In this document: positions 35,401 through 41,400 of the stretch, piece after piece
How positions within the stretch are numbered: position 1 is the first letter of the stretch
How the letters are laid out: every line of letters starts with the position of its first letter
Source of the DNA: Fimbriimonadia bacterium
GTDB taxonomy: Bacteria > Armatimonadota > Fimbriimonadia > Fimbriimonadales > JABRVX01
Length of the DNA: 64,000 nt
Assembly (NCBI GenBank): GCA_041483895.1
Contig: JBGPGO010000010.1
Span: 32,001-96,000, forward strand
Direction: 5' to 3'
Position numbers: made by a program

Positions 35401-38400
35401 GTCAAGATTCAGACGAATACCACCATCTCCACCTCCAATGCCGATATCCGGCAGGCGGAAGCCCAGCTCCGCCAAGCGCAACAGGACTGGGAAAACCAGC
35501 CAAAGATTACTGAGGCTTCCATCGCCCAATCCAAGGCCGGCTGGGAAAGCGCAAAAGAGGACATCCGGCTCCTGGAGACCTCGACAATCCCAAACAGCAT
35601 CGTCCAGGCCGACAACGCTGTCAATCAAGCAAAGGCCAGTTTGGAAGAGGCCGATGCGAATTACAAACGGATGCAGTATCTCGTCTCCAAGGGCTTCCGA
35701 GCGAAACGCGACGAAGAGGTAGGCAAAGCCCAATTTGATACCGCAAAGACTCAATACGATTCTGCGGTTCAATCACGAAAAATCCTCGATCGGCAGAATG
35801 AGAGCCAGCGTAAGGCCGCCGACCAGCGCCTTGCCCAAACGAAAGCCGCGTATGATCAGGCTGTCGCCAATTCCTATCTGGTCCAGCAGCGCAAAGACGC
35901 GCTCGAATCGGCGAAGGCGGGCCTGGCCGGGGTCCGCGCAAGACGAAATGGGATCAATCGACAGAGTGAAACCCAAGCGGCAGCAGGCATTCAGGAGATT
36001 GACAGCCGCCTGGAAGACGCCAACCGCCAGCTTAACGAAACGGAAATCAAGGCCCCGATCAATGGCATGGTCACCAAGCGATACGTCCAGATCGGCGACC
36101 TCGTTACGGCTCTATCCGGGTTCAGCTCCGGAACTCCGGTCTATCAAATCGCCGATCTGAGCCAACTGAAAATAAATTTGTCGATCAACGAGGTCGATGT
36201 ATCGCGATTGAAGGTCGGCCAGGAAGTGGAAGTGACCGTCGACGCGGTCCGTGGCGAGACGTTTCACGGAATAGTCAACAAAATCGCGCCCGCTTCGGAC
36301 TCCAGCAGCCAGGCCCAGCAGCAGGTGGCGCCGGGTACCGCCACGGTCGTGAAATTTCAGGTAGAAGTTTATCTCACCAACTCCGATCGCCGTCTCAAGC
36401 CCGGCATGAGCGCAAAGTGCCGAATCATAACCGACCGCGCCACAAACGTGCTCCTGATGGATGCCGAGGCCGTGGGCAAAGAGATGAAAGACGGCAAAGA
36501 GACCTACTTCGCCATGAAGCTGTCCGGCAAGAAGGTGAAGGACAAGAAGACAGGCCAATTGGTGGACGAGACTGAGCGAGTACCGTTGCAGGTCGGCCTC
36601 CAGGCCCCCACCCGCTATGAAATCACGGCCGGCGCGAAAGAGGGGGACAAGTTTGCCAGAGCCCCCTTCGGCGGCCCAAAACGGCGTGATCTTCGCATGG
36701 ATTTCGGCGCCAATAGCGACGACGAAGAAAAGAACAAAGACGATCAGAAGAGCAAGGACGAAAAGAAAGAGTGAACATACTCCAGTCGCTGCTCGTCGCC
36801 GTGGGGATGCTGCGGGCAAACAAAATTCGCTCGTTCCTCACCATGCTCGGCATCATCATCGGCGTCATGGCCGTCACCGTGACGATCGAGATGGTGGAAG
36901 GCTTCCGCAGCTACATGAACAACCAGTTCGCCAGCCTGGGTTCAAATACTGTTTTTGTTTTCTATGATCCGAGCGGCCGGCGGCGGGGAGAGACGTTGGG
37001 TGGAGTAGGCGGTCTCAAGCAAGAAGATGTGGAAGCGATCCGAGACGAATGCTCCCTTGTCAATCTGGTCAGTGAGGAACTTCGTCTTGGCGCAAAGACC
37101 GTCTCCTACGGGGACCTGCAGCTCGAGAGTACCGATGTCATCGGCGCCGATGGATCGTATGCCGAGATGCACGCGCTGCAGACCGACGAAGGCCGGTTTT
37201 TCACCGATACAAGCTCCGACAAATGGGCGAACAATGTTGTCCTCGGCTACGACGTTGCGCAAAAGCTTTTTCCGCGCGGCGGGGCGATTGGCAGCGACGT
37301 GATCATCGATGGCCGGGCATTGCGCGTGATCGGTACGATCAAGAAAAAGGGTCAGACGCTCGGCGAGCAGGAGGACAAACGGGTGTACGTGCCGGCCTCC
37401 ACCGCGCAAAAACGTTGGCTCGGATCGGACGACGTGCATGTTCTGTTGGCACGGCCGGTCTCAATGGCGGACACGGACGGCGCGATGGACCAAATGTGGC
37501 AGACGCTCATGCGCCGCCACGACAACAAGCAGGTGTTTCGCATCGGTTCACAAGAAGCGATGACCGCGGCGTTCGGCGGCATCATCACCGCTTTTGGGGC
37601 CGTCTTTTCCGCAATCGCAGCGCTGTCGCTTCTCGTCGGCGGAATTGGCATCATGAACATCATGCTCGTGTCCGTTACCGAGCGCACGCGAGAGATCGGT
37701 CTGCGCATGGCGGTCGGCGCGAAACGCTACGAGCTGCTCTTCCAGTTTCTCGTCGAGGCCGCCACGTTGTCGCTCATCGGCGGTCTCATCGGCATGGCTC
37801 TTGGTTGGGGATTGGGCGCGGCGGTCGATTGGTTCACTCATTCACCGATGGCGCAAGGCATGCCCGGCATCACGATGACTTTTCCGCTCTGGGCCGCGAT
37901 CGGGGCTTCGCTCTTCAGCGCATCCGTGGGCCTCGTCTTCGGCATCTATCCCGCCTGGCGCGCCGCCAAACTCGACCCCATCGAAGCCCTCCGCCACGAG
38001 TAATCCGATCTCTGTAGCCGCAGGTCCTCTTGCCGCTACTCCACCAATTGCCACGTACCCAAGCGCCCGCGGATTCCGACGGAGAAGGGCTGGGCCGCGA
38101 GATCTTCAATCACATGCCCAATACCACGTGCCGATGTTCGGGTCCGGGTGCGTCTCCCCGCTCGCATGTCCCGACGGCGACACGAGCGTCTTATCGAATG
38201 CCCCCGCAGACGTGATGAACTTCGCGTGACCATCCGCAAAGATCATGCTCCCGCCATTCCGGTGCCATTCGCGGAAGTAGTCGTCATATCCCGCGCACTC
38301 GTATCCATAGTAGCAACCCCCCTGCGGGTCCAGCGCCTTCGAGAAAAAGGGAAACTCCTCATCTCGAATGATCCGCGTCTGTGCAGGCAGTTGATACGCG

Positions 38401-41400
38401 GCATCCTTCACGATCTGCGTGGTGCCGTCCGGGTACACATTGCCATTTTGGCTGCTATAGTTTGCGATTGTTGAAAACCCGCAGTGATCGAATCGATAGC
38501 TCGATCCATAAGCTTCCCAATAGTTCCTGGATTTCGGCACGTCGCCCTCTTGAAACGGACTCCCGATATCTTCCGGACAATCAAAGACACGCTTGTCCTT
38601 CGTATATGTCAGTAGTGCCATCTCAATACCCAAATGCCCCGGTTCCCATGGACTCGGCGTTTTGTTATACGCCTGGAAAATCGGCCATGTCGCGTTGTTG
38701 TCATCCACGTACATGCGGACCGCCAAGCCGACCTGCCGCGCGTTGGAAACGCACGTCGTCACCTTCGCTTGCCGTCTTGCGTTCGCGAACACGGGAAACA
38801 GAATCGCGGCCAATATCGCGATGATCGCGATCACCACCAACAGCTCAATCAGCGTAAACGCTTTTCTATGCACTTTTTCGCCCCCTCCGATTTATCCCTC
38901 CACGGTCACACTGCGGAGGGTCGTCGTTCGTCATCCCTTGACAATCGCACTGTCAAGGGCCGACGGCGTCTCCCTTCACAATCCCAATTGTGAAGGGGCG
39001 CAAGATGACTAGGGGACGGACAAGTACGGGGGGAGAAGTCTCTGCGTTCCCTCCGCCGGAATTATCCGTCTCAGGTTCAAGGGGTCTATGCGCTACCGCA
39101 ATCTCAGCCCTTTCGGGCTCCCCCAGCAGAACGCCTCAATTCTACCACATCAAATAAGAAGCCCTCCTCTTTTTCCGAGCCGAAGGCGAGGAAAAGCGGC
39201 GGATGATGGCAAGTTGGAAAGCCCTCCCCTTTTTCCGAGCCAAAGGCGAGGAAAAGGGGGAGGGCTGGGTGGGGGTCAAAGGCACTGTCGCGAACGAGGA
39301 TATCCCTCCTCCTTTCCAAGAAGCGGCCAGCGGGAGGTTGGAAACGACGGGCATCATTGGGCGACGGCGACATGGCCGCCTGGTAGGCTCTTGGAGGTAT
39401 TTGCAGGTATTTCCTTGGACCGAAGAATAGAAACCCGCTCGGCGAGAGTCTTCATTGATAAAAGCGTCCGCTGGGAATGAAGAACTCCTGGCCGAATCCG
39501 GAAATTTGCTGTATCATAGTAAGCGGACAGCCACATTGGAAGTTGTTGAAACGTGACAATGCAACTCTTCCCATCCATCGGGACATGGGAACAAGTACTC
39601 GGTAATTGGCGCGATCCGTTTCAGAGGTGTATGTTGACAATCGGGCGGATCGATCAACGTTGGTGCGCTGCGAGGAGAGAGGCGGTGCCAAAATGAAGTC
39701 GCGACTGCTTTGCACGGAGATTGCAATTTGCTGTATCCAGGCATTTCAGATTCCACAATTAGCCACAGCCCAGCAATATACTCATCGCCGGATCGGCACC
39801 TACCGCGGGGTCGGGTTTGGCTATATAACTGACGACGGTGTACCGATTTACCTTGTCACCGAAGGGGATCCGAACGATCTTGGCGCACCCTATGATGTCT
39901 ATGTTGACGGCGTAAACTACACCGGCAGCGTATTCAATGGAGATCATTATTGCTATGGTCCGAAATTGCTGCGCAACGGCGACATCTACTGGACTGGAGG
40001 ACAAACTAGGATCGATGTTTACAAAAACAATGTAAACATTACCCAAACGTTGTATGGCAACGCCTATAATGTTTCAGAATACAGGGTGAATGAACGTGGC
40101 AATGTCGCGGTTCACCTCAGTCTGGATCATTCGTCCACACAGGACACATTCTTGGACGGGTTCAACATGTCGAAGGCCGCTCTTGGCAATGGCTTGCGGC
40201 AGACCCAGCTCCTCCATTTGACAGACGACGGAACTCTCTTTTGGCGCGGGACGGGGCCAAAAGATCAAGGAAATGATGACGTATTCAGGAATCTCCAGAA
40301 TACGGACGCCGATGCCTTGGGCGCCAATCGGGCTGCCTATCAATACTATGTGAATTCTAACGGACAGTACCTTTGGACCGGTTTGGGAGACAAGACAGGT
40401 GGCTGGAAGCATGTGTTCCTCGGCCAAGCAGACGTGACAAGAGCCTTGTTCGGCTCCACCGACCACAACGATTGGGCGGTAGCGCTCAGCGATACCGGCA
40501 GTGTTCTGATGGAGACCTTCGATGCCGAGTCGCGGACGCTTGGTATGTACAAGGATGGCGATCGGATCTCCGACGTGTTGGGAGTGGCCGGGGGCATTGA
40601 CATCATCGGCTACTTCGCCTCCGATGGTCGAGCGGTGTGGAGCGGAGGAGGCACTGCATTCGGGAAATTTACCGACGTGTTCGCGGATAGGGCTAATCTA
40701 TCAGCGGCACTACTCGGTGGGAACCGTCAAACTAGGCTGGACGGTGTGATCCCCAATGGAAATGTGCTTTGGCATGGATATGGCAACCTGAATCCGCATT
40801 TCGACTTATTTGTTGAACAGTTCAATCTCTCGGCCAGCGCCATAGGCGATGCGTCGCAGAGTTACTGGGCGCTAGGCGCTTCCGGCAACAAGAAGGGACA
40901 GATCATTTGGGGGGTTGCCAGGAATGGAATGGAAGAACTTTGGGTCAGCACGCCGGTGCCGGAACCGGGTGCAATTGCGGCTGCAGGGTTCGCCATCCTG
41001 GGCCTGATACTGCGGAGGCGTCAGCGGGCGAAGTAGCCGTCGAGGATCTTCTGCTGCACAGGGGTCAGCCTGTCCGAAACGGAAAGGACCGCCTCGGACT
41101 GGCTCATCGCCGTAATCGTGCCGGTGAACTCCATCTTCGTCCCGCGCCGCAGCACCTGGACCACATAGCTGTCGTTGGGCTTTACACCTTGCAATGGGGT
41201 GGCCGCGCCGCGAACATCCTTCTCGTTTACCTTCAGCAGCACGTCCCCAACCTGAAGACCGATCTGGGTAGCGATCGCGTGCACCTCGCTCACTCGCGGG
41301 TACGCCGTCGTTCCGGGCAGTTCCGTGCTAAATCCCGCATCCGTCTTCGGCTGGGACGCCTCATAGTGCAGGCCCGCGGCGGCGAACAGCTCCTGATAGG

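Follow-up and report, generated by a model that had tools for sequence, protein, structure and literature searches.

A prepilin-type H-X9-DG protein behind the sole TPP riboswitch of a Fimbriimonadia bacterium: a putative thiamine capture subunit

The periplasmic thiamine binders TbpA/ThiB and ThiY and the ECF S components ThiT and YkoE are controlled by TPP riboswitches and are rich in conserved aromatic residues. The riboswitch-linked clade of prepilin-type proteins described here (clade T1) shares both properties, but has no sequence match to them, no ABC permease or ATPase in its operon, and retrieved pilins in fold searches. In the Bacteroides OMthi-pnuT-tnr3 operon (PMC5613172), a TPP riboswitch is followed by an envelope protein, TPK and an inner-membrane carrier, an order shared with the system studied here; in this operon, and in those with a TPP riboswitch, TonB receptor, TPK and SSF symporter, split operons keep the riboswitch, as is the case here. 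Compared to operons of the OMthi type, the first gene encodes a 255-aa prepilin-type protein instead of an 800-aa beta-barrel, in a genome with no TonB receptor found. The operon logic (riboswitch, kinase, carrier) has precedents; what is new lies in the component and in its putative role.

Pilin scaffolds have likewise been tied to uptake from outside in Neisseria ComP (DNA uptake) and Legionella PilA2 (iron acquisition, PMC13170364). Our protein differs in its putative small-cofactor ligand, its control by a metabolite riboswitch and a head about twice as large. PilA2 is described there as a major pilin that is not iron-regulated and whose contribution to iron uptake requires neither PilD nor PilT nor an assembled pilus; a pilin can therefore work from the inner membrane. 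The DUF1559 (PF07596, 'SBP_bac_10') and H-X9-DG (TIGR04294) proteins have in common with ours the prepilin signal, the H-X9-DG motif and the expansion of paralogues (45 here). At least 41 copies per Planctomycetales genome (PMC8567305) and, in another study, 68 paralogues, two of them essential (PMC10632474), have been reported, with no ligand given in either paper. In contrast, clade T1 is present in a single copy, is coupled to a riboswitch, has motifs of its own and falls just below both curated cut-offs. The name SBP_bac_10 is attached to a domain of unknown function.

Coordinates are positions in the window, a 64,000-nt stretch of contig JBGPGO010000010.1 (GCA_041483895.1, Fimbriimonadia bacterium, genome completeness 95%) in which contig position 32,001 is position 1; order and phylum mean Fimbriimonadales and Armatimonadota. 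The features of the locus are as follows.

39030..39134, minus strand: TPP riboswitch aptamer (RF00059), by Rfam covariance model
38874..39029, minus strand: expression platform, by structure prediction
38881..38888, minus strand: ribosome-binding site rich in purines, predicted to be about 85% paired across the structural ensemble
38106..38873, minus strand: prepilin-type H-X9-DG gene, 255 aa, TPP-linked clade (T1), open reading frame with GTG start
38796..38870, minus strand: class III (prepilin) signal and hydrophobic helix, residues 2-26 (N_methyl; Ala at -1, Phe at +1, Glu at +5)
38229..38264, minus strand: H-X9-DG motif, residues 204-215, in the last beta-hairpin of the model
36771..38003, plus strand: convergent MacB-like permease, the transcript boundary, outside the system

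The aptamer matched RF00059 over its full length (model positions 1-105; 64.3 bits vs. a gathering cut-off of 54.3) and was the only such match in the genome. The GTG start lies 157 nt from the aptamer, and the pilin-like gene is monocistronic because the next gene downstream is the convergent permease. The statement in the genome-wide survey's note that the sole TPP riboswitch stands ahead of a lone prepilin-type gene was thus confirmed. In the expression platform, no terminator-like site was found and a segment rich in pyrimidines, located 3' of the aptamer, is predicted to pair with the ribosome-binding site, suggesting that the platform is probably a translational OFF switch. In the predicted folding, release of this site requires pairing into the aptamer core at a cost of about 10 kcal/mol; blocking the 5' strand of P1 alone left it paired.

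The 255-aa protein carries the class III signal of type IV pilins and pseudopilins, defined as a short basic leader, G/A/S at -1, F at +1, E at +5 and a hydrophobic helix (PF07963 at residues 2-26, 33.4 bits; TIGR02532, 31.6 bits). Position -1 is A or G in 67/67 members of clade T1, being Ala instead of Gly in 47/67, while Phe+1 and Glu+5 are invariant in 67/67, partly a selection effect since the motif served to pick members. A literal H204-X9-D214-G215 is present near the C-terminus, with scores slightly below cut-off for both TIGR04294 (18.1 vs. 19) and PF07596 (20.7 vs. 23.3); TIGR04294 matches 18/51 homologues at E<=0.01 and PF07596 many of them. Judged by these profiles, the protein is a divergent relative of the H-X9-DG/DUF1559 proteins and not a formal member. 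The clade has its own motifs (PIxxAY in 60/67, HxGxE in 67/67) and, in the head, aromatic and charged residues whose conservation is specific to it; H80, E84, D102 and S125 are invariant and R170 nearly so in its alignment. Neither a Pfam SBP family match nor the plug and beta-barrel domains of a TonB-dependent receptor were found in the protein. All 21 sequence matches in the PDB were pilins, the ESM Atlas search gave unnamed clusters alone, and a locus search from the single protein query returned distant paralogues only. No clear pattern was seen around the other paralogues in the genome: many of the neighbouring genes are unrelated, and a peptide ABC transporter, a LacI regulator and a handful of sugar enzymes occur between them.

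The survey's note had called the head domain poorly modelled; once an alignment was supplied, it modelled confidently (pLDDT 93.6 and 96.1). The head comprises 226 residues (30-255), and a long alpha-1 helix is predicted at residues 8-58. The top fold matches were nearly all pilins, also with the hydrophobic part removed, at weak Z scores of 3-5 (maximum 5.0). Among them were 6xxd (Z 4.7, rmsd 3.6, 98 aligned) and the DNA-binding minor pilin ComP (Z 3.6, rmsd 4.9, 102 aligned). Foldseek gave no match at E<=0.001, and no SBP or enzyme fold was among the low-Z matches listed in the wide fold searches. These weak matches suggest a pilin-like fold and point to no function. The earlier idea of a capture device is supported as regards thiamine acquisition; "substrate-binding protein" is not supported, the structural matches listed being pilins.

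With about 45 paralogues in the genome, one riboswitch-pilin adjacency could be due to chance (about 1%, by our estimate). An orthologue is, however, present in 114/151 genomes of the order and 40/137 other genomes of the phylum, and the riboswitch lies directly upstream in 114/114 and 40/40 of them, respectively; conservation in 154/154 genomes is therefore not chance. The TPP-linked clade is monophyletic (SH-aLRT 99, quick tree), and a second, distinct pilin clade stands behind TPP switches in 5 genomes. ThiC accompanies the orthologue in 0/114 genomes of the order and 3/40 in the rest of the phylum, vs. 84/97 genomes without it, with contrasts inside families at G018, G216 and G198/G256. 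The exclusion of ThiC that had been proposed thus stands in the order but is near rather than strict in the phylum; since 22 of the 23 ThiC genomes of the order belong to one family, the independent contrasts are those of the phylum sample. Fisher tests were set aside, as kin are not independent and significance would be overstated. Our literature search found no paper on the pairing of a TPP riboswitch with an H-X9-DG pilin.

As the note had it, this genome lacks thiamine synthesis: ThiC was not found, tblastn with the relatives' ThiE, ThiD, ThiM, Thi4 and YkoE found none of them, and ThiG and ThiO gave weak partial matches only. TPK and the SSF symporter adjoin on contig C3, with no riboswitch there. 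In genomes of the phylum outside the order, TPK and/or SSF lie downstream of the pilin in 24/37 loci, and YkoE-family S components lie beside it in G001, G006 and G285, these YkoE-adjacent copies grouping apart on a long branch (SH-aLRT 83, quick tree). A TPP riboswitch co-located with TPK and a carrier, and enriched where synthesis is missing, is the pattern of a thiamine uptake or salvage regulon, and it is seen here. The claim that the pilin feeds an SSF carrier was not supported as worded: the SSF orthologue occurs in 69/114 pilin genomes of the order, leaving 45/114 with no identified inner-membrane carrier, and in other lineages the same SSF subfamily is preceded, at a distance of no more than two genes, by a TonB-dependent receptor in 24/35 loci and by a pilin in 0. 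The pilin therefore seems to serve an outer step and not to be an SSF subunit. In 14/15 scanned loci of that subfamily a TPP riboswitch precedes the receptor, giving the order TPP riboswitch, TonB-dependent receptor, kinase, SSF; the pilin thus occupies the receptor's operon slot. PnuC, considered as the missing carrier, is present in 4/4 tested SSF-less genomes and absent here, but was not counted as a thiamine carrier because the genes beside it are unrelated or NadR-like and do not include TPK.

Candidates for TonB-dependent receptors were found in 0/9 sampled genomes of the order, this one included, which encodes 3 secretins, 10 T2SSE-family ATPases, PilM, PilC and a prepilin peptidase. 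Thiamine is small, and porins might suffice. A separate head clade stands behind cobalamin riboswitches in 48/69 loci, often ahead of BtuF or CobU, with BtuB-like receptors in the same slot in 17 other genomes; its conserved residues differ from those of the B1 clade on a shared scaffold. The B12 pilin and BtuB do not strictly exclude each other, since G226 and G244 have both the pilin and a BtuB-like receptor. As many pilin-bearing families outside the order also have other kinds of TonB receptors, there is no strict replacement. The soluble binder BtuF downstream of the B12 pilin speaks against a role as a mere periplasmic binder, with passage through a secretin still putative.

The phylum-wide riboswitch coupling, the near exclusion of ThiC in several separate lineages and the operons with TPK, SSF or YkoE make it very likely, on genomic grounds, that the pilin-like protein serves thiamine acquisition in some way. 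We lean, by a modest degree, towards a putative thiamine-specific capture subunit on a type IV pilin scaffold that would take the outer-envelope step of a TonB receptor. Low TPP would free the ribosome-binding site; the prepilin would be inserted in the inner membrane, cut by the prepilin peptidase found here, and built as a minor subunit into a type IV pilus or pseudopilus. The head, specific to this clade, would bind thiamine at or beyond the secretin, retraction would carry the vitamin to the periplasm, and the lineage's own carrier (SSF here, YkoE in some) would import it for conversion by TPK to TPP.

Alternatively, the helix could be an anchor, the head trapping diffused thiamine in the periplasm and relaying it to a carrier such as SSF or YkoE with no pilus involved. 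We consider this rather unlikely, yet it is the best placed of the alternatives: the tight operons with SSF, TPK or YkoE, the YkoE-adjacent copies grouped apart as if carrier-matched, the frequent Ala at -1 and the pilus-independent nutrient role of PilA2 (PMC13170364) all agree with it. It accounts less well for the pilin being retained in the genomes missing SSF, for the same SSF being paired elsewhere with a TonB receptor and no pilin, for the B12 clade adjoining BtuF, a true periplasmic binder, and for the invariant Phe+1 and Glu+5, with the above caveat on selection.

The weakly matched pilin fold, the confinement of the pilin mainly to genomes without ThiC and the published view that the 79 PulG-like genes in Fimbriimonas encode pili for attachment (PMC4072686) would also suit a cross-feeding adhesin, a minor pilin attaching the starved auxotroph to producers or thiamine-rich particles without binding the vitamin; this is improbable, separate B1 and B12 head clades and the receptor slot in transport operons fitting ligand recognition better. 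The cultured soil bacterium Fimbriimonas ginsengisoli is, judging from its genome, a thiamine auxotroph (PMC4072686). We give a similarly low chance to a salvage enzyme, sensor or thiamine-sparing protein, for example one that acts beyond the cytoplasm on thiamine phosphates or on breakdown products. The conserved H80, E84, D102, S125 and R170 could be catalytic and the data do not fix the ligand, but no enzyme family or fold was among the matches listed and the B12 clade uses different conserved residues on the same scaffold. Chance or hitch-hiking of one member of a family abundant in the genome is the least credible explanation, almost negligible given a pair kept in every orthologue-bearing genome, even with the operon split as here, the monophyly of the clade and the second clade behind TPP switches.

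In Planctomycetota and Armatimonadota, few unexplained gene expansions are as large as that of the H-X9-DG/DUF1559 proteins (41 to at least 79 copies per genome in the papers cited). For one clade the riboswitch suggests what the ligand may be, and the cobalamin-linked clade provides a built-in control of specificity (B1 vs. B12). If the capture-subunit reading is true, small-molecule uptake proteins would gain a new class built on a pilin scaffold, accounting for the feeding of diderm vitamin auxotrophs without TonB-dependent receptors; the genomes alone point to an undescribed vitamin-catching route in the envelope. More tentatively, and with doubts prevailing, these prepilins, present by the dozen in each genome, may form a library of putative capture heads, each specific for its ligand and carried by a retractile pilus or pseudopilus, a TonB-independent outer-membrane route replacing TonB receptors in Armatimonadota and partly in Planctomycetota, of which the B1 and B12 clades would be the members with a ligand revealed by the riboswitch. 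The suggested extension to Planctomycetota was borne out for B12 (pilin behind a cobalamin switch in 3/30 loci) but not for TPP (0/33 loci). The FMN riboswitch was rejected as a third case (1/101 genomes, no pilin behind it). In the present genome, contig C24 has a weak cobalamin match (27.2 bits, below cut-off) and, with no exact overlap between the two contigs, a B12-clade pilin gene stands at the start of contig C18.

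The only TPP riboswitch in this genome, which is 95% complete, precedes a lone prepilin-type gene of the H-X9-DG kind, in agreement with the genome-wide survey's note:

39030-39134, minus strand: TPP aptamer, full length (Rfam 64.3 bits vs. 54.3)
38106-38873, minus strand: 255-aa ORF, starting 157 nt after the aptamer

Residues 2-26 of its product form a prepilin N-methylation motif, and H204-X9-DG occurs literally, with TIGR04294 and PF07596 scores slightly below cut-off. The neighbour downstream, a MacB-like gene, is convergent and ends at 38003, so the 255-aa gene stands alone. 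The assignment to Armatimonadota, order Fimbriimonadales, follows the note and the names of the sources in which close homologues occur. Folding predictions bury the ribosome-binding site of the pilin gene, and its release requires a pairing that disrupts the aptamer core; there is no terminator-like site between aptamer and gene. The predicted leader fits a translational switch, with a calculated cost of about 10 kcal/mol for the open form. Upstream of the riboswitch, a GC-rich palindromic element that looks REP-like occurs twice, in imperfect copies (39170-39310), and a divergent gene (39606-41036, plus strand) encodes a 476-aa PEP-CTERM-like protein with internal repeats, for which no riboswitch link was found.

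The reported absence of thiamine synthesis was also borne out: the genome lacks ThiC, and tblastn with relatives' proteins as queries found no match to ThiE, ThiD, ThiM, Thi4 or YkoE and gave weak partial matches to ThiG and ThiO. Genes for thiamine pyrophosphokinase (TPK) and an SSF symporter adjoin on contig C3, with no riboswitch there. Fimbriimonas ginsengisoli is likewise described, in PMC4072686, as having TPK only and no thiamine synthesis. TonB-receptor candidates numbered zero in this genome and in eight others of the order Fimbriimonadales. Pilus genes are present: three secretins, ten T2SSE-family ATPases, a prepilin peptidase, a POTRA protein and a PilM-secretin-ATPase-PilC-pilin cluster.

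Among 151 genomes of the order (orthologues called at profile E≤1e-45), a TPP riboswitch above cut-off was present in 137, the pilin orthologue in 114 and ThiC in 23. Every one of the 114 orthologues starts on the strand of the riboswitch and no more than about 300 nt away from it, as judged by eye from coordinate tables; one of these genomes, G036, is unpublished and no conclusion rests on it. In the other 24 genomes with a riboswitch match, 22 have ThiC there, one (G003) an unrelated gene, and one match is weak. Behind some TPP matches in the order (L054-L060, in G003, G010, G025, G046, G105, G115 and G054) stand genes for membrane or secreted proteins that have no assignment. The contrast with ThiC drawn in the earlier note survives in that no genome of the order has both genes, but it is weaker there than it looks because 22 of the 23 ThiC genomes are one family. 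A sample of 137 genomes from elsewhere in the phylum (E<1e-75) fills this gap: the orthologue occurs in 40, always beside a TPP match (one, at 52.6 bits, below cut-off), and ThiC in 3 of these 40 vs. 84 of the 97 without it. Each of the three has a second riboswitch, and one has its ThiC in two pieces (G246:C10:72979-74218), which may be decaying synthesis in a genome with a pilin operon. Within-family contrasts were seen for G018, G216, G198 and G256; as kin are not independent, we count about four separate contrasts and give no p-value. Four weaker matches (~165 bits) were left out as a sister group without riboswitch. A sister group of the TPP clade (L370-L374, L237) scores 55-79 bits on the head profile and has no adjoining riboswitch in genome searches; in several cases the next gene encodes a large protein whose leader is twin-arginine-like.

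Outside the order, we surveyed 37 loci from 36 of the 40 orthologue genomes. TPK and/or SSF lie downstream of the pilin in at least 24 (both in 15, TPK in 7, SSF in 2); in 12 the neighbours are unrelated or unassigned, and the last carries two PF09819 S components. In the two other genomes of the family to which this genome belongs, the order is riboswitch, pilin, PF09819 protein, pilin. We take PF09819 to be YkoE, an ECF S component. Tandem or duplicated pilins follow a single TPP switch at L052, L053, L104, L092 and L094. Some of these pilins lie on either side of YkoE-family S components, in operons where an ECF ATPase was not seen. YkoEDC is named as a thiamine transporter in PMC5613172. 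A different prepilin clade, T2, lies behind the switch in five genomes without ThiC or the orthologue, with SSF or TPK plus SSF next in 3 of 5 loci (L109, L110, L111, L126, L127), possibly an independent recruitment. An SSF orthologue was present in 71 of the 151 order genomes, and 69 of these belong to the 114 that carry the pilin. The counts speak against a pilin dedicated to the SSF carrier that the note proposed, 45 of the 114 lacking the SSF orthologue; PnuC matches in four such genomes lie in NadR-like or unrelated contexts, and PnuC was not counted as a thiamine carrier.

Metagenome contigs searched with a homologue of the SSF (source name Ignavibacteriae) gave 41 loci, six of which were excluded for too little upstream DNA. 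A TonB-dependent receptor lies at most two genes upstream in 24 of the remaining 35 and a pilin in none; TPK separates receptor and SSF in all six loci where the intervening gene was scanned, and of 15 receptor loci scanned for a TPP riboswitch, 14 have one ahead of the receptor. The counts therefore indicate one operon in two forms, riboswitch-receptor-TPK-SSF and riboswitch-pilin-TPK-SSF. The receptor form (L323-L363) is a thiamine uptake operon with SSF replacing PnuT, and mirrors the experimentally tested Bacteroides OMthi-pnuT-tnr3 operon (PMC5613172).

The head domains cluster as T1 (the orthologues, 67 sequences), T2 (5) and a B12 clade (48 from Armatimonadota, 3 from Planctomycetota and one of this genome, at a contig start), all apart from 43 further paralogues encoded by this genome. 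Some prepilin-like paralogues are arrayed in tandem, about eight at C14:53622-62096 and about four at C9:11495-15463, and each array forms or joins a sequence cluster of its own. With a T1 head profile, T1 members reach 190-308 bits and T2, B12 and paralogues no more than 32; in a quick tree T1 is monophyletic (SH-aLRT 99). The copies linked to YkoE come together on long branches in that tree (SH-aLRT 83), which may point to a different ligand, such as a precursor. Conserved in T1 are F66, Y69, H80, E84, Y118, Y126, R167, R170, E172, F177, Y189, Y191 and W203; thiamine pockets use aromatic and acidic residues. The head had been called poorly modelled, but with alignments AlphaFold2 reaches pLDDT 93.6 for the full protein and 96.1 for residues 30-255. 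Fold matches of both models are almost exclusively pilins and weak (best Z 5.0, rmsd 4.6, 149 aligned; another Z 4.7, rmsd 3.6, 98 aligned).

The switch, gene, clade, operons, pilus genes and missing synthesis and TonB receptors are direct observations. We infer the remaining steps: the prepilin would be cleaved, built into a pilus, bind thiamine at the outer step and hand it over. Such capture at the outer step is the reading we favour, and we think it somewhat probable. A binder anchored in the inner membrane is rather unlikely, though Legionella PilA2, which helps iron uptake without PilD or PilT (PMC13170364), offers a precedent. An adhesion role seems highly improbable to us; PMC4072686 interprets 79 PulG-like genes of F. 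ginsengisoli as attachment pili. For an enzymatic role, we see just as slight a chance.

Cobalamin riboswitches repeat the receptor/pilin pattern of the TPP loci. Of 69 Armatimonadota loci, 48 have a prepilin gene at one of the first three gene positions (19 of the 30 with the best scores and 29 of 39 hand-picked), often with BtuF, CobU or CobT next, and by coordinates a BtuB-like receptor lies behind the switch in 17 genomes. Strict exclusion of the two fails, as G226 and G244 have both. G216 (92% complete) has both pilins and neither ThiC nor a TonB receptor, in which it differs from the sampled members of its genus. T1 and B12 heads are homologous across 204 columns. The proposed extension to Planctomycetota holds in part: a prepilin is next in 3 of 30 cobalamin loci but in none of 33 TPP loci (the best 30 of 48 matches in 121 genomes, plus three), where mostly ThiC-like genes follow. 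H-X9-DG/DUF1559 prepilin-like proteins are treated as abundant and unexplained in PMC8567305 and PMC10632474. No paper linking them to a riboswitch or vitamin was found in open-access full text; subscription journals, curated regulon databases and supplements, outside that scope, may hold one.

The distinct head clade behind cobalamin riboswitches (L171-L240, L376, L378 and L384 in Armatimonadota; L269, L272 and L276 in Planctomycetota) often stands ahead of BtuF, CobU/CobT or PEP-CTERM proteins. In this genome, the B12-clade pilin opens contig C18 (3-980, L310), and a weak cobalamin riboswitch match (27.2 bits; C24:2156-2269, L316) precedes PEP-CTERM-like genes, with the reading direction leading off the contig end. 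An exact contig overlap was not found; the two may form one operon.
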